Assembly (NCBI GenBank): GCA_025927545.1
Contig: JAICLE010000002.1
Coordinates: 36,339-100,338 of the forward strand
From: Gemmatimonadales bacterium
GTDB taxonomy: Bacteria; Gemmatimonadota; Gemmatimonadetes; Gemmatimonadales; GWC2-71-9
DNA: 64,000 nt
Direction: 5' to 3'
The position numbers and the translations under genes are program-made. Every line of letters starts with the position of its first letter. Positions within the stretch are counted from its first letter, which is position 1. Below are positions 16,865 through 62,256 of this stretch, piece after piece. The notes beneath the pieces were generated by a model, which was given only the letters and a program-made list of their open reading frames with translations, ran no database searches and was not told where the DNA came from.

Positions 16865-19788
16865 CGCTTGGCGTCCAGCCAGTCGGGCCCCACGCCGATC
16901 TCCACCACGAGCGGCACCCGGAGCTGCACTACCTGCTCCATGTGCGTGCGCACCAGCACTCGCAGCGCGTCCATCTCCTGGGGCGGCCCCTCGAAGACCA
17001 GCTCATCGTGCACCTGCAGCAGCATCCGGCTCTCGAGCTTCTGCTCGCGGAGCGCGGCATGGATCCGGATCATGGCGAGCTTGATGAGATCGGCGGCTGA
17101 GCCCTGGAGCGGCGAGTTCTGCGCGTTGCGCTCGCCGTAGGCCCGCATGTTGAAGTTGCGGTCACGGATCTCGGGGATATAGCGCCGGCGCTGGAACAGG
17201 GTCTCGACATAGCCCTGCTCACGCGCGAGACGCACCTGCGCGTCCAGGAAGGCGCGCACCCCCGCGAAGCGCTCGAAGTAGCGGGCGATGAACGTCCTGG
17301 CGTCCTCCTGCGAGATGCCGAGCTGCCGGCTGAGCGCGAACGGCCCCTGCCCGTAGATGGTCGCGAAGTTGATCGTCTTCGCGCGCGCGCGCATGTCGGG
17401 CGTGACCTGCTCGAGAGGGACCGCGAAGATCAAGGCGGCGGTCTGCCGGTGAATGTCGCCACCCTGGTGGAATGCTTCGATGAAGGCCGGATCGCCCGAG
17501 AGGTGGGCCATGAGCCGCAGCTCGATCTGCGAGTAGTCGGCGACGAGGAAGCTCCAGCCGGCGCGGGGCACGAAGCCCCGGCGGATCGCCTCGCCGCGTG
17601 GCGTGCGCACCGGGATGTTCTGCAGGTTGGGCTCCGAGGAGCTGAGCCGCCCGGTGGCCGCACCGGTCTGGTTGAAGCTGGTGTGGATGCGTCCCGTGTG
17701 GCGGTTCACGCGCTCCGGCAGCGTATCCACGTAGGTGCTCTTGAGCTTCTGCAGCTCGCGGTATTCGAGAATCAGGCGCGGCAGTTCGTGGCCCATTGCC
17801 GCAAGTTGTTCGAGGACGTCGGCGTCGGTGCTGGGCCCGGTCTTGGTGCGCTTCAGGATCGGGAGCTGCTGCTTCTCGAACAGAATGGCCGCGAGCTGGC
17901 GGGGCGAGTTCAGATTGAGCGCCTCGCCGGCGACGGTGGCGATCTCGGCCTCGAGCCGGGCCAGCTCGACGCCGAGCTCCGCGCTCAGGCGGGCGAACAC
18001 CTCGGGATCGATCGAGATCCCGTCCCATTCCATGTCGGTCAGTACCGGGATGAGCGGCATCTCGATGTCGCGGAGCAGCGGCTCCATCGCCATCTCCCGC
18101 AGCGCGGGCGCGAGCCGCTCGCGGAGCGCCAGCACGGTGCCGCTGTCGGCGCCGCAGTACGCCGCCGCTGCCGCGATGGGCACCTCGGCGAACGGGATCT
18201 CCGCCTTCCCCTTCCCCGCCACGTCGGCGTACGTCTGCATGCCGCGTCCCAGGTGCTCGAGGCAGAGCGTGTCGATGGCGTGCGACCGGCGGCCGGGATC
18301 GAGGACGAAGCTGGCGAGCATCGAGTCATACGCCACGCCGGCGAGCTCTACCCCGGCGCGGCGGAGCACCTGCCAGTCGTACTTGATGTTGTGGCCGGCT
18401 TTCGGAGCCGCCGGGTCCTCGAGCAGCGCGAACAGCGGCGCGCAGGCAAAGTCGGTGATCGGCGGGAGATTCCTGACCGGCTCGGGTGCGGCGAGCTCAC
18501 CCGCCGGCGGGCGATGGCCGAACGGCAGGTACCAGACCTCGCCCGGGCTCGCCGCCAGCGAAAGACCGACCAATTCTGCATCGTGCGGCTCGAGCGAGCT
18601 GGTCTCGGTGTCGAGCGCCATGATCGGCGCGGCGCGCAGGCGCTCGACCAGCGCGGGAAGCTCGTCGGGGTCGTCAACGATCGTGACCTCGGGCGCCGGA
18701 CCTTCGTCGAGGGCGAGCCAGTCGGCGGCCGTGGCCGGGAGGGTGGCGCTGGCCGCGGCTACGAGTGCGCCCCCGTCGTCCGGAACGGCACCTTGGGACC
18801 ACGAGTCGGGCACCACCGAGGCCACCCGGCCGGTTTCCAGGCCTGCGTCGGCCTCCGCGGCTGCATCCCCAACCGCGGCCGGCCCCCCCTGCCCGCCCAA
18901 CCGCCTCGCCAGCGAAAAGAACTCCAGCTCCGTCAGCAACCGGATCAGTGACTCGCGGTCGGGCTCCTGGAGCACGAGATCGCCGACATCGAGCTCAACC
19001 GGCACATCGCGCTTGATCGTGACGAGCTCCTGGGAAAGCCGCGCCGCATCGGCCTGCGCGAGGAGCGCCTCCCGGCTGCGCTTGGCCGTGACTTCGCCGG
19101 CGCGGGACAGAATCGTCTCCAGGTCGCCGTACTCGGCGAGCAACTTCTGGGCGCCCTTCTCGCCGATGCCCTTTACGCCGGGCACGTTGTCCGAGCTGTC
19201 GCCCACGAGCGCGAGAAAGTCCACCACCTGGTGCGGCGGGACGCCCAGCCGTTCGGCGGCGTTCGCCTCGTTGACCCATATCTCGTCGACGGCAGCCGGC
19301 CCACCGCGGCCCGGGTTCAGGAGAGTGATCCCGGGGCCGATGAGCTGGTAGAAGTCCTTGTCGCCCGAGACGATCACGGCCTGGAGCCCTCGCCCGGCGG
19401 CGGCGTGGGCCAGGGTTCCGATCACGTCGTCGGCCTCGTATCCCCTGACGGCGACGAGCGGGATCCGAAAGGCCTCGAGCAGCGTGCAGATCCGCTCGAC
19501 CGCGGTGTCGAAATCGGCCTGCAGCGACTCGTCGAGCTTCGCGCGGGTGGACTTGTACTCGGGGTAGCGCTCCTGCCGGAAGGAGGTGCCGGCGTCGTTG
19601 ACCCAGCACACGTAGTCGGGCCGGTACTTCTCACGCAGGCGGACCAGGAAGTTCACGACGCCCCAAGCCGCGGAGGTGTTCTCTCCACGGGCGGTGCGGA
19701 GCGGCCGCGAGATCATCGCGTAGAAGGCGCGATAGATCAGGGCGTAGCCGTCGATGAGGAAGAGCTGGGGGGGCGTGTGGTTGGGCAT
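16861..19788 (-). CDS. polA: DNA polymerase I
   Basis: 975 aa. It has an N-terminal 5' nuclease domain (LFLIDGYALIYRAFYA), a 3'-5' exonuclease-like domain, and polymerase motifs DYSQIELRLMAHLSGD and QVHDELVFE. Confidence 0.97.
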   Translation of the reverse strand: MPNHTPPQLFLIDGYALIYRAFYAMISRPLRTARGENTSAAWGVVNFLVRLREKYRPDYVCWVNDAGTSFRQERYPEYKSTRAKLDESLQADFDTAVERICTLLEAFRIPLVAVRGYEADDVIGTLAHAAAGRGLQAVIVSGDKDFYQLIGPGITLLNPGRGGPAAVDEIWVNEANAAERLGVPPHQVVDFLALVGDSSDNVPGVKGIGEKGAQKLLAEYGDLETILSRAGEVTAKRSREALLAQADAARLSQELVTIKRDVPVELDVGDLVLQEPDRESLIRLLTELEFFSLARRLGGQGGPAAVGDAAAEADAGLETGRVASVVPDSWSQGAVPDDGGALVAAASATLPATAADWLALDEGPAPEVTIVDDPDELPALVERLRAAPIMALDTETSSLEPHDAELVGLSLAASPGEVWYLPFGHRPPAGELAAPEPVRNLPPITDFACAPLFALLEDPAAPKAGHNIKYDWQVLRRAGVELAGVAYDSMLASFVLDPGRRSHAIDTLCLEHLGRGMQTYADVAGKGKAEIPFAEVPIAAAAAYCGADSGTVLALRERLAPALREMAMEPLLRDIEMPLIPVLTDMEWDGISIDPEVFARLSAELGVELARLEAEIATVAGEALNLNSPRQLAAILFEKQQLPILKRTKTGPSTDADVLEQLAAMGHELPRLILEYRELQKLKSTYVDTLPERVNRHTGRIHTSFNQTGAATGRLSSSEPNLQNIPVRTPRGEAIRRGFVPRAGWSFLVADYSQIELRLMAHLSGDPAFIEAFHQGGDIHRQTAALIFAVPLEQVTPDMRARAKTINFATIYGQGPFALSRQLGISQEDARTFIARYFERFAGVRAFLDAQVRLAREQGYVETLFQRRRYIPEIRDRNFNMRAYGERNAQNSPLQGSAADLIKLAMIRIHAALREQKLESRMLLQVHDELVFEGPPQEMDALRVLVRTHMEQVVQLRVPLVVEIGVGPDWLDAKR

Positions 19789-19805
19789 CGGTTGGAAGAT
19801 AAGGT

Positions 19806-19889
19806 GGGAAGGCGGAAGGACGGAAAGACGGAAGGGCCGCCGCTACGTCTTTCAGTATTTCCGTCCTTCCGCCTTTCCGCCCTTCCGCC
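19806..19889. repeat. octamer-array inverted repeat element, copy 1
   Basis: GGGAAGGC GGAAGGAC GGAAAGAC GGAAGGGC, then 20 nt, then TTTCCGTC CTTCCGCC TTTCCGCC CTTCCGCC. 19811-19835 can pair with 19865-19889 (23/25). It contains the 15-mer CGGAAGGACGGAAAG, which is also found at 56268 and 61951. Confidence 0.9.
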
Positions 19890-19892
19890 TCT

Positions 19893-21236
19893 CTAGCCCT
19901 CCTGTCTTCGAACCCGTGACAGGGTCCGCTCGAAGTCCGCGCGGCTGTTGGGCACCAGCCTGAGACGGCCGAAGCCGCTCTCGTCGCGGAAGAAGAGGTC
20001 GAGCCGATAGGTGATGTACGACCAGCGGACCACGCGGTCGGCGGTGGTGCCGGGGCTGTTTTCGACGGCCTCGTCGGGGGGACCGAGGGTGATGAACACT
20101 TCGCCGCGGTCGGTGCGCCAGCCGGGCACGCCCTCGTCGGTGAATCGCTGATTGGCCTGCGCGATCCGGCCGAAATACTGGTTGAGCGCCTCGTTCTCGG
20201 GCGTGACGGGGTTGGGATCGGTGGCCGCGTAGAACTCTCGCCACAGCCGGGCACGCTCGGACGCGGGCGCCTTCCGCATCGCGCTCACCTGGCTGTCGTG
20301 CCCGAAGTACCGCAGCAGATCGAGCATCTCGTCGAAGTTGGTCACGACCCACGCCTGGGTGAACGAGACCAGCGCCGACACACTGCGCTCGCTACTCCCC
20401 TGCCCGACCACCAGCTTCAGCTCGCCGAGGGACACGCTGTCGGGCGAGAGCCGGATGACCTGGCTCTCGACCTGCCGGTCGCCGCGGAAGCGGAGCTCGT
20501 CCTGGTAGATGACGTGCTGTCGCTCGTCCATCACCTTGAACGGCACGGTTGTCGGGTGCGCGAAGCCGTAACCCTCCATATACGCGAGCAGCGTGTCGCT
20601 TCCGTAGCCCACCGACCCGCGCGGGTTGAGCACGATGTTGAGCGGATCCGACCGGCTTCCCCGCCCCGTCGCCTGGTACGCCAGAATCGGCGCGCTCACG
20701 CTTCCGGGCCCGAAGCTCGGCGCCGTGTAGTCGGCCTCTGCCCGGCTCTCGGAGGTCGAGCCCACGTCCCGCACGGTGACGCTCACGTGGTAGGTGCCCG
20801 GGAGGAGCCGCAGGACCTGCTGGAACAGGATGCTCTCGTCGCTTCGCAGGGTTTCCTTGAACGTGGGCACGCGCACGACTTCCTCACGCGCCACGTCCAG
20901 CGAGGGCGCACCCTCGCGCCGGAACGACAGGCTCACCCGATACCGCGCGACGAAGACGTTGCCTTCGCGCTGGAATGCGAGTGCCCGGTTCTCGAGCGAG
21001 AGTCCCAGGATGCCGACGACCGAGTCGGCCGGCCCGGCGGCGAATGCCACCGTGCCGACGAACGGGAGCGGCTCGGCGGCAGCCAGACGCCCGAGCCGTT
21101 GGTAGTATTGTGTGCTGTTCAGGACGTGGGTCAGCGATTCAGTCGGCGTGGGCTGGTCACCGCTGCCGACGCGGCTCCAACTGCCACAGCCAAGGGCCGC
21201 AGCACCCAGTGCCGCCGAAAGCACAAGCCGACGCAT
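19893..21236 (-). CDS. GWxTD domain-containing lipoprotein
   Basis: 447 aa. It has a signal/lipobox (LGAAALGCGS) and a C-terminal DEGVPGWRTDRGEVFITLGPPDE, the GWxTD motif. Confidence 0.8.
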   Translation of the reverse strand: MRRLVLSAALGAAALGCGSWSRVGSGDQPTPTESLTHVLNSTQYYQRLGRLAAAEPLPFVGTVAFAAGPADSVVGILGLSLENRALAFQREGNVFVARYRVSLSFRREGAPSLDVAREEVVRVPTFKETLRSDESILFQQVLRLLPGTYHVSVTVRDVGSTSESRAEADYTAPSFGPGSVSAPILAYQATGRGSRSDPLNIVLNPRGSVGYGSDTLLAYMEGYGFAHPTTVPFKVMDERQHVIYQDELRFRGDRQVESQVIRLSPDSVSLGELKLVVGQGSSERSVSALVSFTQAWVVTNFDEMLDLLRYFGHDSQVSAMRKAPASERARLWREFYAATDPNPVTPENEALNQYFGRIAQANQRFTDEGVPGWRTDRGEVFITLGPPDEAVENSPGTTADRVVRWSYITYRLDLFFRDESGFGRLRLVPNSRADFERTLSRVRRQEG

Positions 21237-38734: not shown

Positions 38735-38774
38735 GCACGAAGGGGGCATACCCGCAGGTATGCCCCCTTCGTGC
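38735..38774. terminator. 18-bp perfect hairpin between convergent genes (terminator-like, no U tract)
   Basis: GCACGAAGGGGGCATACC-cgca-GGTATGCCCCCTTCGTGC. It lies between the helicase stop (38706) and the lipoprotein stop (38805). Confidence 0.6.
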
Positions 38775-38804
38775 TGCTCGGGCCGACTCTCGGGCTTCGA
38801 TGAA

Positions 38805-39758: not shown

Positions 39759-40058
39759 GGGACGACTCCTTCGACGGCACGAGGGTGAGCCGGCCGGCTG
39801 CCGGCGTCAGCCCCTTCGACGGCCAGGCTGTCTCTGAGAGACCCTTGGCTTTGCGGACCGGCCTCGCGGCCGGGGTGCCCTGGTCGAAGGGAATTGGTAC
39901 AGTGATCCTTCGACCCGCAGATCGGCAATCCCGGTGCCAGATCGGCAACTGATGCTGGACCAACGTGATGCCCCGCGACAACCGGGCTGCGCTGGGTGGT
40001 CGCTACCGCGCTCTGCAACGGCAGGTCTCCACGCGGGCGCACCGATACGAGGTTCATC

Positions 40059-53140: not shown

Positions 53141-56100
53141 ATGACGACTCCGACCCTCGACCTCTTCAATGCGTTGCAGGCGGCGCTCGCGCCACATTAC
53201 CGCCTGGAGCGCGAGCTCGGGCGCGGGGGAATGGGCGTCGTCTTTCTCGCCACCGACACGACGCTCGACCGGCCCGTCGCCATCAAGGCTGTCCATCCCG
53301 AGCTGGCCTCGCACCCCTCCATCGCGCGGCGGTTCCTCGCCGAAGCCCGCACCGTGGCGCGGCTGCGGCACCCCAACATTGTGGCAGTCCATGCCGCGGG
53401 TACCACCGAGGGCCTCCTCTATTATGTGATGGACCAGGTCGAGGGCGAGAGCCTGCGCGAGCGGCTCTCCCGCGACGGACGGCTCGACCCCACGACCGCG
53501 TCGCGCATCGTGGCCGATGTGGCCACGGCGCTCGACGCGGCCGGTGGCGCGGGCGTGGTGCACCGGGACGTCAAGCCCGAGAACGTACTGCTGGACGGGG
53601 CCACGGGACGGGCCATGCTGGCCGACTTCGGCATCGCGCGGGCAATGGCGGCGGATCCGGGCACGAACAGCACCGGTGAAGGCATGGCCGTGGGCACGCC
53701 CGCGTACATGAGCCCCGAGCAGGCCGCCGGCGAAGAGATCGACACCAGGAGTGACCTCTACGCCCTCGGCGTGGTGGCCTACGAGATGCTCGCGGGCCAG
53801 CCGCCGTTCCAGGGACCGAACCGGGTGGTGGTCTCGAAGCACATCGCCGAGCGGCCGGTGCCGATCGAGCGGGCGCGCCCCGACACGCCACGGCCGCTGG
53901 CGGCGGCGATCATGCGCGCACTGGAGAAGCAGCCCGCGGACCGGTGGCAGCGGGGCGACGAATTCCGGCAAGCACTCAGCACGGACACGCCCACGCCGAG
54001 GGGCCGCCGGTCGCGGCTCCGGCGCACTGCTATCGCGGCGGCCGTGGCCGCGCTGGGCATCGTGGCCGGGGGCATCGGGCTCGCCCGCCGCGCGCCCGGC
54101 CCGCCGGCGGGGGTGAACCCGCGGCATTCGATCCTGGTCCTGCCGTTCGACAACCTGCGCGACGACCGCACGGTGGACTGGCTCCGCGACGGCAGCGTGA
54201 GCATGCTCGGCCTCAATCTCTCGCAATGGAACGACCTGACCGTCGTGGACCACGAGCGACTGCACGATCTGCTGGCGCAGCACGACCTCAAACCGGGCGA
54301 CGACATCGGACTCGACATGGCGCGGCGCCTGGCGCGCGACGCCGGGGTGTGGACTGTGGTCCTGGGGGATTTCGCCCAGGCCGGGGACTCGCTCCATCTC
54401 GCGGCGCGGGTGTACGACGTCGCCAGCGGCCGGCGGGTGGACGTGGCACGGGTGGACGACCGGACGGGCGCCGACGTGCGACCGCTGTTCGACGAGCTGG
54501 CCACCAAGCTCCTCGATCTCTCTGGCGCACCCAACGAGGTGCGGATCGGGCTGGCCCGCTCCACCACCGCTTCGCTCGAGGCGTACCGCGCCTATCTCGC
54601 GGGCGTGGAGCAGCTCAATCGCTGGGACCTGGCCGGCGCGGAGCGGGAGCTCGAGCGCGCCATCCGGATCGACACCACCTTCGGCCTGGCGTACTACAAG
54701 CTGGCGCTCACCCGCGGGTGGCTGGTGGGCACCGGCGACTCGATCGCCGACGCGGCGATCGTCCGGGCCACCGCCTACTCGGCAAACTTGCCGGCGCACG
54801 AGCGGACGATCATCAACGCCTACCGCGCCTTCCTCGGCGGCGAGTACGTGGACGCGCGCGCGTCCTACCGGCAGTTGCTCGCGCGCGACGGGTCCGACGC
54901 GGACGCCTGGTACGGACTCGGCGAGGCCTGGTTCCACGATACGGCCGGACCCAACCAAGCGCCGGCCTGGACCCAGGCGATCCGCGCCTTTCGACGGAGT
55001 CTCGTGCTGGATCCGAACTACACGCTGGCCTACGAGCACGTGCAGGCGATGTTGAGCACGGCGTCCGCGGCGCAGCCGTACTACGCCCTGGTGGCGTCCG
55101 ACTCGTTCGTGCCGGCGCAGGCGCCGGATGGCCGCGACCTGCTGGACAGTGCCACGACGGCGGCGGCGCTTCGGCGAGCGCGGGCCGAGGGGCTCGCCAC
55201 GGCCCGCCGCTGGGTCGCCACCCAGCCCACGACACTGAGAGCGCATGGCGCCCTGGTGGACGCGTACGTCGCGTCGGGGAACTTCGGCGCCGCGCTGTCC
55301 GAGGTGGACCGGTTCCGCCAGACGCCACCGGCGCATCCCGAGCTTCCGTTCGTCGCGGCGCGCATCCGCTTTGCCTCCGGCGAGGTGGACCGCGCGGCCA
55401 GCGACCTGCGCACTGCGCTCGATACCGCGGCGCCCCAGGACTTCCGTACGTACGAGGGGACGCCCACGGTGGTCAGCGATATCGCCGCCGCCGCGAATGT
55501 CTTCGCCTACCAGGGCGACCTGGTGCGCGCGGCAAAGACGATCGATCTGGCCGACCAGGTCCGCCGCGAGGTGATCCGGCACCCGGGACGCGAAGGCTCG
55601 GGACCGGTCGGCGAATCGTGGCGCCGCATGGCGCTGAGCGAACTCTACGGGGCCACCGGCGTCCCGACGGCGGCGCTGCGGCAGGTCTGGCAGAGCGCGG
55701 CCGAGGCGGTGCGGATGGCGCCCGGTGAGGACCGGGCCCATCTGGCGCACAGCGGCGCCTCGGCGGCGATCGGTCTCTTCACGGGGCCGGCGGCCGACAG
55801 CAGCGCCGTCGCCGAGTACCGCGCACTGACCGGCGAGACGCTCACCAAGGAGGTCCGCGCCCTGCTCGCGCTCAGTCGGGGCGACTCCGCCGCCGCCCGC
55901 CGCGCGTTGGCCGAGCCGGATTCGTCTCAGGCGATGATGAAGACCATGTACATGGCGTACCGGCGCCCGCTCGCCGCTCAGGCCTACTACCTCCTGGGCG
56001 ACTACCACGCGACGATCCGGAGTCTCGAGGACTTCCGTCCCGAGGTGCTTCGGATCGGCAGCTTCGACTCCCGCTGGGGAATGCTCGGCCGGGTACGCCT

Positions 56101-56257
56101 GCTGCGGGCGGCCGCGTTCGAGCAGCTCGGGCGCCGGGCGGAGGCCCGGCAGGAGTATCACCAGGTGCTGAGCCAGTGGCGGGCCGCGGACCCGGCGTTG
56201 CAGCCGTTCGTTCGCCAGGCGGAGCAGGGGCTGGCCAGAGTGGGGGAGGCGGGATGA
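53141..56257 (+). CDS. Ser/Thr protein kinase with transmembrane helix and large extracytoplasmic/TPR-like C-terminal region
   Basis: 1038 aa. It shows GRGGMGVVF, AIKAV, HRDVKPENVLL, DFGIARA and SPEQ. A TM segment follows (IAAAVAALGIVAGGIGLA), then about 700 aa of helical-repeat-like sequence. Confidence 0.92.
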   Translation: MTTPTLDLFNALQAALAPHYRLERELGRGGMGVVFLATDTTLDRPVAIKAVHPELASHPSIARRFLAEARTVARLRHPNIVAVHAAGTTEGLLYYVMDQVEGESLRERLSRDGRLDPTTASRIVADVATALDAAGGAGVVHRDVKPENVLLDGATGRAMLADFGIARAMAADPGTNSTGEGMAVGTPAYMSPEQAAGEEIDTRSDLYALGVVAYEMLAGQPPFQGPNRVVVSKHIAERPVPIERARPDTPRPLAAAIMRALEKQPADRWQRGDEFRQALSTDTPTPRGRRSRLRRTAIAAAVAALGIVAGGIGLARRAPGPPAGVNPRHSILVLPFDNLRDDRTVDWLRDGSVSMLGLNLSQWNDLTVVDHERLHDLLAQHDLKPGDDIGLDMARRLARDAGVWTVVLGDFAQAGDSLHLAARVYDVASGRRVDVARVDDRTGADVRPLFDELATKLLDLSGAPNEVRIGLARSTTASLEAYRAYLAGVEQLNRWDLAGAERELERAIRIDTTFGLAYYKLALTRGWLVGTGDSIADAAIVRATAYSANLPAHERTIINAYRAFLGGEYVDARASYRQLLARDGSDADAWYGLGEAWFHDTAGPNQAPAWTQAIRAFRRSLVLDPNYTLAYEHVQAMLSTASAAQPYYALVASDSFVPAQAPDGRDLLDSATTAAALRRARAEGLATARRWVATQPTTLRAHGALVDAYVASGNFGAALSEVDRFRQTPPAHPELPFVAARIRFASGEVDRAASDLRTALDTAAPQDFRTYEGTPTVVSDIAAAANVFAYQGDLVRAAKTIDLADQVRREVIRHPGREGSGPVGESWRRMALSELYGATGVPTAALRQVWQSAAEAVRMAPGEDRAHLAHSGASAAIGLFTGPAADSSAVAEYRALTGETLTKEVRALLALSRGDSAAARRALAEPDSSQAMMKTMYMAYRRPLAAQAYYLLGDYHATIRSLEDFRPEVLRIGSFDSRWGMLGRVRLLRAAAFEQLGRRAEARQEYHQVLSQWRAADPALQPFVRQAEQGLARVGEAG

Positions 56258-56265
56258 TTTCGGGT

Positions 56266-56323
56266 GACGGAAGGACGGAAAGCCGGCGCCGTTCTCCGAG
56301 GAGCAACCTTCCGTCCTTCCGTC
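56266..56323. repeat. octamer-array inverted repeat element, copy 2
   Basis: GACGGAAGGACGGAA (56266-56280) pairs perfectly with TTCCGTCCTTCCGTC (56309-56323), with a 28-nt loop. It contains the 15-mer CGGAAGGACGGAAAG at 56268. Confidence 0.9.
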
Positions 56324-56348
56324 CTCCCGGGCCCCCCTTATATTTCCG

Positions 56349-56723
56349 TCGCTGGTCGAGCGCGGTGGTCGCGGACGCCGCAAGGCGGTCCGAGGAAAGT
56401 CCGAGCTCCAGCGGGTAGACTGCCAGGTAACGCCTGGGCGCCGGAAGGCGACGGACAGGGCCACAGAAAACAGACCGCCAGGCGGGCAACCGCCGGGTAA
56501 GGGTGAAACGGTGGGGTAAGAGCCCACCGCGGCGCTGGCAACAGCGACGGCACGGCAACCCCCAGTCGGAGCAAGGCCAAATAAGCGGTGAGGTGTGACC
56601 CACACCGGCAGGACAAACCGCGGGTAGGCCGCTAGAGGTGGCCGGCAACGGCCGCCGTAGACAGATGACCATCCCGGTCACGCAAGTGCCGGAACAGAAC
56701 TCGGCTTATGGCCCGACCAGCCG
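56349..56723 (+). ncRNA. rnpB: RNase P RNA, bacterial type A
   Basis: It carries the universally conserved blocks GAGGAAAGTCCGAGCTCC, CCAGGTAACGCCTGG, ACAGAAAACA, GGGTAAGGGTGAAA, GGTAAGAGCCCACC, GGAGCAAGGCCAAATA and ACAGAACTCGGCTTAT. P1 pairing joins GCTGGTCG (56351-56358) with CGACCAGC (56714-56721). The ends are approximate, within a few nt. Confidence 0.93.
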
Positions 56724-56724
56724 C

Positions 56725-61835: not shown

Positions 61836-61876
61836 CGGGACTCGAAAACTTAGGAGGGATTGATCAAGGGCGAGAG

Positions 61877-61905
61877 ATGTTACGGAACGGTTGTGGAAAA
61901 GTCAA
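61877..61905 (-). promoter_or_regulatory. candidate dnaA promoter (TTGACT-17-TAACAT) with embedded DnaA box TTTTCCACA
   Basis: The minus strand reads TTGACT tttccacaaccgttccg TAACAT. The 9-mer TTTTCCACA (61900-61892) matches the TTATCCACA consensus at 8/9 and spans the -35/spacer junction. The -10 ends 41 nt before the dnaA ATG. Confidence 0.5.
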
Positions 61906-61943
61906 CCATGCATCAACGCGCGCGAATCTACTCTTGACAAGAT

Positions 61944-62028
61944 GGAAAGACGGAAGGACGGAAAGACGGAAAGGCGACAGACGGAGGGTTGGTAACGACG
62001 GTGCTGCTCGAAGACGCGTCCTTCCGTC
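61944..62028. repeat. octamer-array inverted repeat element, copy 3
   Basis: GGAAAGAC GGAAGGAC GGAAAGAC GGAAAGGC (61944-61975). Further on, GACGGAAGGACG (61949-61960) pairs with CGTCCTTCCGTC (62017-62028). The 15-mer CGGAAGGACGGAAAG lies at 61951. Confidence 0.85.
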
Positions 62029-62037
62029 CGGAGCAGC

Positions 62038-62066
62038 TTGACCGCATCCTCCCCTCTAACTAGCTT
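62038..62066 (+). promoter_or_regulatory. candidate rpmH promoter (TTGACC-17-TAGCTT)
   Basis: The hexamers are spaced 17 nt apart, with GGAGGA at 62081-62086 and the ATG at 62095. The -10 matches only at T1, A2 and T6. Confidence 0.35.
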
Positions 62067-62094
62067 CCCGGGCTCACTTTGGAGGAACGCCCGC

Positions 62095-62256
62095 ATGAAA
62101 CCGTCGTATCGGCCGCGCAACAAGCGCCGGATCAACAAGCATGGCTTCCGCGCTCGCATGGCCACGCGCTGGGGGCGGGCGGTCCTTTCCCGCCGCCGGA
62201 AGAAGGGGCGCAAGCGGCTCACCGTCTCGCTGCCCTCGAAGCACGGGGGCTCCTGA
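62095..62256 (+). CDS. rpmH: 50S ribosomal protein L34
   Basis: 53 aa: [44 protein letters not shown]... Confidence 0.95.

Follow-up and report, generated by a model that had tools for sequence, protein, structure and literature searches.

The DNA analysed in this study is a 64,000-nt stretch of the genome of a soil Gemmatimonadales bacterium (assembly GCA_025927545.1, contig JAICLE010000002.1, positions 36,339 to 100,338), hereafter called the window, with a G+C content of 69%. At three intergenic sites in the window, tandem arrays of a purine-rich octamer, GGAARGRC, are accompanied by arrays of the complementary, pyrimidine-rich octamer in inverted orientation. The first site (copy 1) is located between the gene of a GWxTD-domain protein and polA, the second (copy 2) between a Ser/Thr protein kinase gene and the RNase P RNA gene rnpB, and the third (copy 3) between the promoters of dnaA and rpmH. 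Proteins identical to DnaA and to the GWxTD-domain protein were found on two NCBI metagenome-assembled genomes (MAGs; GCA_046128395.1 and GCA_025935895.1) and on contigs from farmland-soil metagenomes, and homologues were labelled Gemmatimonadales or Gemmatimonadota by their sources. The features of the three sites are listed in Table 1.

The sites had been picked out in a reading made from the letters of the window alone (the sequence-only reading), and its coordinates, octamer arrays, inverted arms and shared 15-mer were all confirmed by sequence, arm and Tandem Repeats Finder (TRF) checks, as was the placement of the copies beside polA, rnpB and dnaA/rpmH. The 15-mer CGGAAGGACGGAAAG is found exactly at positions 19813, 56268 and 61951. 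With up to two mismatches allowed, it was matched nine times in the window against 0.22 expected, a count reached in none of 100 shuffled sequences, and its sharing is not attributable to chance. At the same tolerance, the two-unit pattern GGAARGRCGGAARGRC gave 15 matches against 0.59 expected, 14 of them at the three sites. TRF detected period-8 arrays at all three sites, with two to six units per array arranged head to tail, and no other inverted tandem arrays, of any unit, were found elsewhere in the 64 kb. The spacers of the three copies are unrelated to one another.

Table 1. Features at the three array sites and their neighbours (window coordinates).
Feature	Position	Strand	Description
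Copy 1, whole hairpin	19803..19890	.	4-unit purine-rich octamer array 19806-19837, short spacer, 5-unit pyrimidine-rich array 19847-19889
TATCTT, putative polA -10 box	19796..19801	-	7 nt before ATG (19788-19786); predicted promoter function
GWxTD-domain protein gene, 447 aa, upstream of copy 1	19893..21236	-	Open reading frame; Pfam PF20094 on identical product
Copy 2, whole hairpin	56259..56331	.	2-unit purine arm 56266-56284, 20-28 nt spacer, 3-unit pyrimidine arm 56305-56329
Ser/Thr protein kinase gene with TPR repeats, 1038 aa, upstream of copy 2	53141..56257	+	Open reading frame; Pfam Pkinase/TPR on identical product
TATATT, putative rnpB -10 box	56339..56344	+	7 nt before RNase P RNA 5' end (56352)
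rnpB, RNase P RNA	56352-56724	+	Rfam RF00010, 268 bits
Copy 3, purine-rich octamer array	61939..61985	+	About 6 units by TRF; 4 strict units 61944-61975
Copy 3, pyrimidine-rich arm remnant	62017..62029	+	1.5 units
dnaA promoter TTGACT-17-TAACAT (neighbour of copy 3, not part of it)	61877..61905	-	Conserved in 80/80 orthologous loci
CTTGACC, rpmH -35 region (GGTCAAG on dnaA strand)	62037..62043	+	Second copy CTTGACA at 61933-61939

Copy 1 fills the 104-nt gap between the stop codon of the GWxTD-domain gene and the polA ATG (19788). Its layout agreed with the sequence-only reading except for the spacer, given there as 20 nt, which measures 9-29 nt depending on how many degenerate units, such as the inner two of the five in the pyrimidine-rich array, are counted as arm. 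The inverted arms (19810-19835 and 19865-19890) are 26 nt long and 92% complementary, and single strands of copy 1 fold at -59/-62 kcal/mol (z -6.4/-7.2). Per nucleotide, no other short intergenic region of the window folds as strongly. The base of this hairpin is 3-4 nt away from the GWxTD stop codon (19893-19895). The inverted arms of copy 2 (56266-56280 and 56309-56323) are 15 nt long and 100% complementary, and single strands fold at -42/-48 kcal/mol (z -3.4/-4.2). The kinase gene stops at 56257, and the first repeat arm of copy 2 begins 9 nt further on, with 8 nt in between; the fold-defined hairpin base lies 1 nt past that stop, and the element ends 28 nt short of rnpB. Both sequences were invariant in other assemblies, copy 1 across eight and copy 2 across five.

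Folding thus held for copies 1 and 2 but not for copy 3. Although its arms (61949-61960 and 62017-62028; 12 nt) are 100% complementary, the fold of copy 3 was not better than those of shuffled sequences on either strand (z -1.2/-1.5). Near-identical co-specific strains differ at this locus inside the arrays only: other strains have 8 or 17 additional nt in the purine arm, and the pyrimidine arm is 24 nt (three units) longer in strains L001 and L004 (loci and strains of relatives are given as L numbers throughout). Each of the alleles is present in two independent assemblies. In a comparison of alleles, the window allele had a fold z of 0.0 and the L001 allele one of -6.3. At this polymorphic locus, copy 3 represents a contracted allele that does not fold, and it is probably without hairpin function in the window strain. 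It is also not downstream of any gene, and the insert that holds it is bracketed by a direct repeat of GTCAAG, contained in the CTTGACA and CTTGACC of Table 1. The sole perfect DnaA box of the window (TTTTCCACA, 61892-61900) sits in the spacer of the dnaA promoter. A replication origin at copy 3 was considered and rejected, since GC skew was uninformative and the window holds this one perfect box and no origin-like cluster.

A similar flank beside copies 1 and 2 (CCACCTTATCTTCC before polA and CCCCTTATATTTCC before rnpB), which the sequence-only reading had associated with the elements, turned out to lie outside them and to be conserved in element-free orthologues. Its position and conservation suggest that these flanks are the -10 boxes of the polA and rnpB promoters. 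At polA, CCTTATCTT-N7-8-ATG is kept in the loci of four relatives (L215-L218, L220), hairpin present or absent, and the hairpin-free locus L222 has TTATGCT-N6 before the ATG instead of CCTTATCTT. Similarly, rnpB orthologues, whether they carry a hairpin or not, have TATATT, TATCTT or TAGCTT 7-9 nt ahead of the 5' end. A search by eye for a -35 box within the pyrimidine arm of either site gave no convincing TTGACA-like hexamer at 16-18 nt. The conserved box 7 nt before the ATG suggests that the polA transcript is leaderless. The polA start (19786-19801) is without a Shine-Dalgarno sequence, and at rpmH a clear GGAGGA precedes the ATG by 8 nt (62081-62097); leaderless and Shine-Dalgarno translation initiation both seem to be present in this genome.

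Loci related to the three copies were collected by scanning one genome per species with the pattern GGAARGRCGGAARGRCGGAA. The scan returned at least 119 loci, with about 17 matches expected by chance in the whole collection as estimated from the information content of the pattern, and among those listed 66 came from 34 Gemmatimonadales or Gemmatimonadota assemblies. GGAARGRC arrays are thus widespread, rather than limited to three copies that relatives do not share. Between 36 and 37 inverted octamer-array pairs were counted among the Gemmatimonad loci listed, with arms of 2-11 units (median 4) and spacers of 3-150 nt (median 51) that are mostly unrelated to each other; pairs with more units in one arm tend to have more in the other (rho 0.44, p 0.007). 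Single assemblies contributed several of the matches listed, at least seven in CAWHQC01 and at least six in DASSBA01. The matches listed from other phyla were mostly arrays on one strand, several of them long. Viral contigs held seven solo arrays and no inverted pairs, and a phage origin of the arrays was rejected on that ground. The longest arm mentioned above, of 11 units, belongs to one Gemmatimonadales hairpin (L024:2292-2460), and an array of 70 units (L120:7142-7701) was found on a contig labelled Metamycoplasmataceae that is possibly mis-binned. Arrays were often located within about 100-200 nt of the ends of short-read contigs (L010, L013, L021, L077, L108, L011, L050 and L226); apparently they break short-read assemblies, which would fit many copies per genome.

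A sample unselected for the motif, consisting of 80 orthologous dnaA loci (protein-guided scan, DnaA 79-96% identical) plus the window, 729 kb altogether, placed these elements in a wider context. Tandem arrays of at least 2.8 copies peaked at periods 7, 8 and 9 (87, 132 and 49 arrays, respectively), compared with 26 at period 6 and 6 at period 12. Neighbouring arrays sharing a unit were inverted in 47 cases and direct in one, and the purine-rich arm was the 5' one in 40 of 46 pairs (a bias of 40:4), a polarity that holds on both strands because the element is a palindrome. The units were diverse, including AACAGTG, GGTAAAC, AGAAGTG, GGGAGTC, GGGGACG, GCGGGGAA, AGACGCAC, GACGGAAG and others. 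A genome-specific unit was rejected as a rule, since several different units coexist on one contig and the dnaA-site and rnpB-site units differ in three of the four contigs holding both. The GGAARGRC elements are members of a broader class, that of inverted pairs of 7-9-nt tandem arrays. The family proposed in the sequence-only reading is real, and at one and the same site the unit changes from lineage to lineage.

Two further repeats were seen in the company of such arrays. A conserved palindromic repeat of about 105 nt, GGCACTGTCATCCCGAGCGGAGCGAGGGATCT...AGATCCCTCGCTCCGCTCGGGATGACAGTGCC, occupies the spacer between the octamer arms in at least seven array hairpins (L039:6853-7058, L061:120-300, L072:359-567, L074:2425-2674, L100:5885-6064, L101:7281-7468 and L111:5247-5473) and also occurs at the dnaA site of L128, L140 and L163. 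Its junctions with the arrays are not conserved, and either the repeat inserts into hairpin loops or the arrays grow around it. The nested palindrome GTCATCCCGAGCGGAGCGAGGGATC was absent from the window. The second is a MITE-like relative (MITE, miniature inverted-repeat transposable element) with fixed ends, CACA-GGAAGGGCGGAAGGGCGGAAGATTT ... TTCCGCCCTTCCGCCCTTCC-TGTG (CACAGG...CCTGTG), and spacers of 22 or about 120-134 nt. It occurs in Labilithrix and two related MAGs (L099:1498-1648 (Labilithrix luteola), L067, L068, L079, L088 (MAG MFD02416.bin.2.211), L054, L116 (MAG OH_PFB_28)). Two of its copies have similar outer flanks, and thus the repeated unit exceeds the hairpin.

The position of the elements relative to genes was determined with a crude gene caller of our own, based on G+C at third codon positions (GC3). 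This caller placed 27 elements inside genes, which for paired elements is mostly an artefact: open reading frames run through the repeats and over-extend 5' ends because the repeats have no stop in any frame. Flank contexts were consequently reassigned by a codon-phase G+C test, which resolved 75 of them into 51 tandem, 20 convergent and 4 divergent (convergent versus divergent, p 0.0015). The excess of tandem and convergent contexts means that the elements sit where at least one gene ends, and where a neighbouring stop codon was found, they begin -7 to +33 nt from it. Copies 1 and 2 follow this placement and copy 3, between divergent genes, is a rare exception. The link to the starts of core genes put forward in the sequence-only reading is hence incidental, as copies 1 and 2 and most of their relatives directly follow a stop codon. 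Altogether, the elements at the three sites belong to an intergenic class of inverted short-tandem-repeat hairpins, dispersed and hypervariable, that lies at gene ends. Open reading frame callers that read through the arrays also over-extend gene starts in these MAGs.

Comparison of orthologous sites revealed how quickly the units turn over. At the dnaA site (L126-L205), the comparison covered the 330 nt that precede dnaA, with 61836-62094 as the region considered in the window. Among distant relatives, 33 have the promoters of rpmH and dnaA standing back to back (GGTCAAG-G-TTGACTTTTCCACA), and in the window's clade an insert of 100-550 nt separates them, mostly ending in a second GTCAAG. The units within the insert vary by lineage, with GGACGGAA (the window unit in another register), GGACGGAGA(G), GACGGGAAG, GGACGGTC, GGCGGTCR, GGTACGGC and a 16-mer all represented, and in each lineage the distal arm complements its own proximal arm. 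The fold z at this site ranges from -12.5 to about 0 among lineages. At the rnpB site, relatives have the octamer plus a nested palindrome (L100), a GGTAAAC 7-mer (L132), a GGGAGTC 7-mer (L135), GGCGGGA (L170) or no array. At the polA site, they have a GAGGACGSA 9-mer hairpin, a plain G+C hairpin, a CCGACCGT array, a GGTGAAR 7-mer hairpin or an empty 19-nt gap, and between L215 and L216, whose protein is identical, the unit variants differ on both arms. The unit length at one site can thus be 7, 8, 9, 10 or 16 nt in different lineages. From this comparison it follows that architecture and position persist much better than sequence, and, since the hairpin is absent in some lineages at each of the three sites, that it is not required there.

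A few individual loci of this comparison deserve mention. The array (CGGACGGT)x16 at the dnaA site of L137 (3048-3597) and L138 has no matching second arm within 550 nt. The dnaA-site inserts of L147, L149, L152, L153, L154 and L160 contain A+T-rich stretches and DnaA-box-like runs (GTGGACAA, GTGGAGAA and GTGGAAAG), for which a regulatory or origin-like role is conceivable. In L189, a 67-nt hairpin-forming insertion of the CCCCGTTCCGCC...GGCGGAACGGGG type lies about 110-45 nt upstream of rnpB with TAGCC on both sides, and the sister locus L198 lacks the insert and has TAGCC once; this looks like a target-site duplication made by a different small mobile element.

Direct repeats of this kind bear on the possibility that the elements themselves are mobile, namely that they are non-autonomous, resembling MITEs or repetitive extragenic palindromes (REPs), with the arrays as terminal inverted repeats, a transposase encoded elsewhere and a habit of landing after genes. 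In favour of mobility are an identical 15-mer and unit at three unlinked sites, the many loci per genome (as in CAWHQC01 and DASSBA01), often at contig ends, and a family spread across at least 34 species despite unit turnover at single sites. GTCAAG brackets the dnaA-site insert and TAGCC the one L189 insertion, but nothing comparable flanks copies 1 and 2. Additionally, the GTCAAG-bracketed insert is shared clade-wide and yet its unit differs by lineage, which indicates change in place and not fresh insertions. Spacers, of 3-150 nt, show no relation to one another across the three window copies and 37 relatives, the arm length varies, there are no fixed ends and no conserved body, and inverted pairs are missing from the viral contigs. 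A MITE was rejected as a classification for these reasons of spacer and arm, and we consider mobility of either type improbable.

The same holds for REPs and bacterial interspersed mosaic elements (BIMEs) as a class. Like the REP/BIME sequences of enterobacteria and pseudomonads, the present elements are extragenic, hairpin-forming and multi-copy, and are mostly found after genes and between convergent genes. REPs stabilise upstream mRNA and are insertion targets for other elements, a point of likeness being the palindromic repeat in the spacers of at least seven array hairpins. They are, however, single imperfect palindromes of 20-40 nt with a conserved GTAG-type head that are moved by REP-associated tyrosine transposases (RAYTs), whereas the arrays described here have no conserved GT(A/G)G head, and their arms consist of tandem octamers of variable number with a lineage-dependent unit. 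CRISPR arrays, with direct repeats of 23-47 nt and unique spacers of similar length, were likewise rejected, as the units are contiguous 8-mers and the arrays are inverted. The sequence-only reading was accordingly right to set the elements apart from CRISPR, classical REP/BIME and compact hairpin-plus-U-tract terminators, whose defining features they do not have.

The closest known counterpart is the GGGAATC heptamer of Xanthomonas, which occupies about 185 sites, most of them intergenic (Rehm et al. 2015, PLoS One, PMC4692102). Among these, 70-75 pairs of arrays on opposite strands are in convergent orientation and able to form stem-loops; the arrays lie a mean of 28 nt behind the upstream open reading frame and are depleted between divergent ones, four units are commonest, and the arrays are transcribed, vary at the same sites between sister species and have an unexplained function (PMC4692102). 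Tandem units, inverted pairs, placement after open reading frames, depletion between divergent genes and variation among close relatives are all shared by the elements of this study. They differ in that the unit has 8 nt (7-9, occasionally 10 or 16, in the order) and not 7, in their occurrence in the phylum Gemmatimonadota, and in the many units within one genome. The STRR (short tandemly repeated repetitive) elements of filamentous cyanobacteria are non-coding 7-bp tandem units that form intergenic hairpins, for example at hupS-hupL, and a role in transcript stability has been suggested for them (PMC2670836). They come from another phylum and have other units, and the G-rich heptamer arrays of Nostoc are mostly unpaired, whereas those of the Gemmatimonadales are paired as a rule. 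Vioque reportedly described in 1997 that cyanobacterial repeats of this sort lengthen a helix of RNase P RNA.

Unlike the G-rich subtype of Xanthomonas and Nostoc, GGAARGRC lacks tracts of three or more G. Its GG tracts exclude it from the G-quadruplex subtype, but not from the wider kind of 7-9-nt simple sequence repeats (SSRs). This point is relevant to an explanation at the level of DNA, in which the elements would be sequence-specific protein-binding arrays, cruciforms or G-rich non-B structures that affect promoters or replication. The copies do adjoin promoters (the putative -10 boxes of polA and rnpB, and the gap between the dnaA and rpmH -35 boxes), some dnaA-site spacers are A+T-rich or have several DnaA-box-like motifs, and related G-rich heptamers form G-quadruplexes in vitro (PMC4692102). 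Nevertheless, the unit sequence changes between orthologous sites, an observation that speaks against recognition by a sequence-specific protein, and a period of 8 bp does not match the turn of the DNA helix. GGAARGRC, with GG tracts only, is a poor quadruplex former, and many sister units, among them GGTAAAC, AGAAGTG and AACAGTG, have none. Given these facts and the single perfect DnaA box of the window, with no origin-like cluster, an effect at the DNA level is highly doubtful.

In copies 1 and 2, as in intrinsic terminators, a G+C-rich stem-loop directly follows the stop codon of the upstream gene on its transcribed strand. In contrast to such terminators, they have no U-tract, stems of 15-30 bp or more instead of 5-14, loops of 9-50 nt instead of 3-8, and repetitive arms. 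Canonical intrinsic terminators were rejected because a terminator scan had no match at the three sites and the tails following the stems are CCACCUUAUCUUCC at copy 1 and CCCGGGCCCCCCUUAUAUUU at copy 2. A scan of the window against Rfam found no family at the three sites at gathering thresholds, and at E<=1 only eukaryotic microRNA-precursor models appeared there, far below threshold, as generic long-hairpin noise. Elsewhere in the window, Rfam identified a c-di-GMP-I (cyclic di-GMP) riboswitch aptamer at 39815-39889 on the minus strand (RF01051, 47.8 bits against a gathering score of 35). A literature search found no paper on repeats of this type in Gemmatimonadota within the library that was searched.

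The interpretation that we tentatively favour, at somewhat less than an even chance, is that the elements are slippage-driven stem-loops transcribed at mRNA 3' ends, where they may act as U-tract-independent terminators, stabilisers or insulators. Replication slippage would add and remove array units, and the likeness of the two arms might be maintained by selection for the stem, by intramolecular template switching of the quasipalindrome kind, or by both. Template switching of this kind is established in E. coli. Transcription would make the element the 3' end of the mRNA from the gene upstream, the GWxTD-domain gene for copy 1 and the kinase gene for copy 2, and the long RNA stem-loop would end or stall transcription or block 3' exonucleases. 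It could also insulate the promoter that follows within 10-30 nt, as at the -10 boxes predicted for polA and rnpB. Among the roles listed in the sequence-only reading, a terminator or insulator therefore still appears the best candidate; a miniature mobile element had weak support and a protein-binding array found none.

The support for such a function is circumstantial and comes from the position at gene ends, the fold strength of copy 1 and two observations on gene ends in the window. Firstly, hairpin-plus-U-tract sites were not in excess, with counts of 9 and 7 for expectations of 5.7 and 5.4, respectively. Secondly, a perfect, non-repetitive hairpin of 18 bp, closed by a 4-nt loop and lacking a U-tract, lies between convergent genes at about 38735-38776, and the 111-nt region around it folds at -62 kcal/mol (z -5.3); this looks like the usual type of gene-end stem-loop in this genome. 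The transcribed GGGAATC arrays of Xanthomonas, with their similar placement, offer a precedent (PMC4692102).

Several observations weigh against this interpretation. Copies 1 and 2 lack a U-tract behind their stems, and the stems of the class, at 30-90 bp, go far beyond what a terminator needs. At copy 2, the non-transcribed strand folds better than the transcribed one, and among 37 unidirectional cases the transcribed strand folds better in only 24 (mean -1.8 kcal/mol); with 24 against 13 and a p of 0.10, selection at the RNA level is not demonstrated. The dnaA-site hairpin, with its wide range of z among lineages, has been lost in the window, and distant relatives are hairpin-free at the rnpB and dnaA sites, as is one at the polA site. 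Furthermore, local slippage does not account for one unit recurring at three unlinked sites and across 34 species or more while single sites exchange their units; this is the best argument for a process of dispersal. Such a process could be a lineage-wide mechanism, for example a dedicated or replication-linked process of template switching or repeat addition or an enzyme that specifically mobilises hairpins, which would make the arrays and keep their complementarity, seed the same unit at unlinked sites and drive the polarity, with the stem-loops serving as the main terminators of an order lacking canonical U-tract terminators. We regard this more far-reaching proposal as rather unlikely.

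Slippage could also operate without any function, and the elements would then be neutral or selfish by-products, 7-9-nt arrays that expand by slippage, are template-switched onto the other arm and persist where they are harmless. This explanation, which is a real contender but on balance unlikely, accounts well for the whole-unit polymorphism within a species at the dnaA site, for a stem strength that varies widely there and is lost in the window strain, for arms of up to 11-16 units that exceed functional need, and for sites that are empty in some relatives. Elements reach as far as the stop codon on one side and the following -10 box on the other, as if filling all unconstrained space, and their folding has no significant strand asymmetry. 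The authors of the Xanthomonas study likewise found no regulatory role (PMC4692102). However, inverted pairs at 47:1 and a purine-first bias of 40:4 need a directional mechanism or selection beyond slippage, and neither the unchanged copies 1 and 2 in eight and five independent assemblies nor a median of four units per arm with correlated arm lengths is readily reconciled with neutral drift of the arrays.

Whether they act as transcribed gene-end stem-loops, as we tentatively favour, or not, the three elements are neither unique nor categorically new: they belong to a known but functionally unexplained kind of repeat, to which they add an 8-nt unit and a further phylum. This kind is phylogenetically broad, with representatives in Gammaproteobacteria, Cyanobacteria, Gemmatimonadota and possibly, by way of a relative, Myxococcota. 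Inverted 7-9-nt hairpin repeats are under-studied, and they are a dominant intergenic feature of the Gemmatimonadales, an abundant and poorly cultured order of soil bacteria. The series of orthologous sites, in which the same gap holds different units with complementary arms, provides material for studying the co-evolution of hairpin arms and could also reveal whether the stems act as U-tract-independent terminators.

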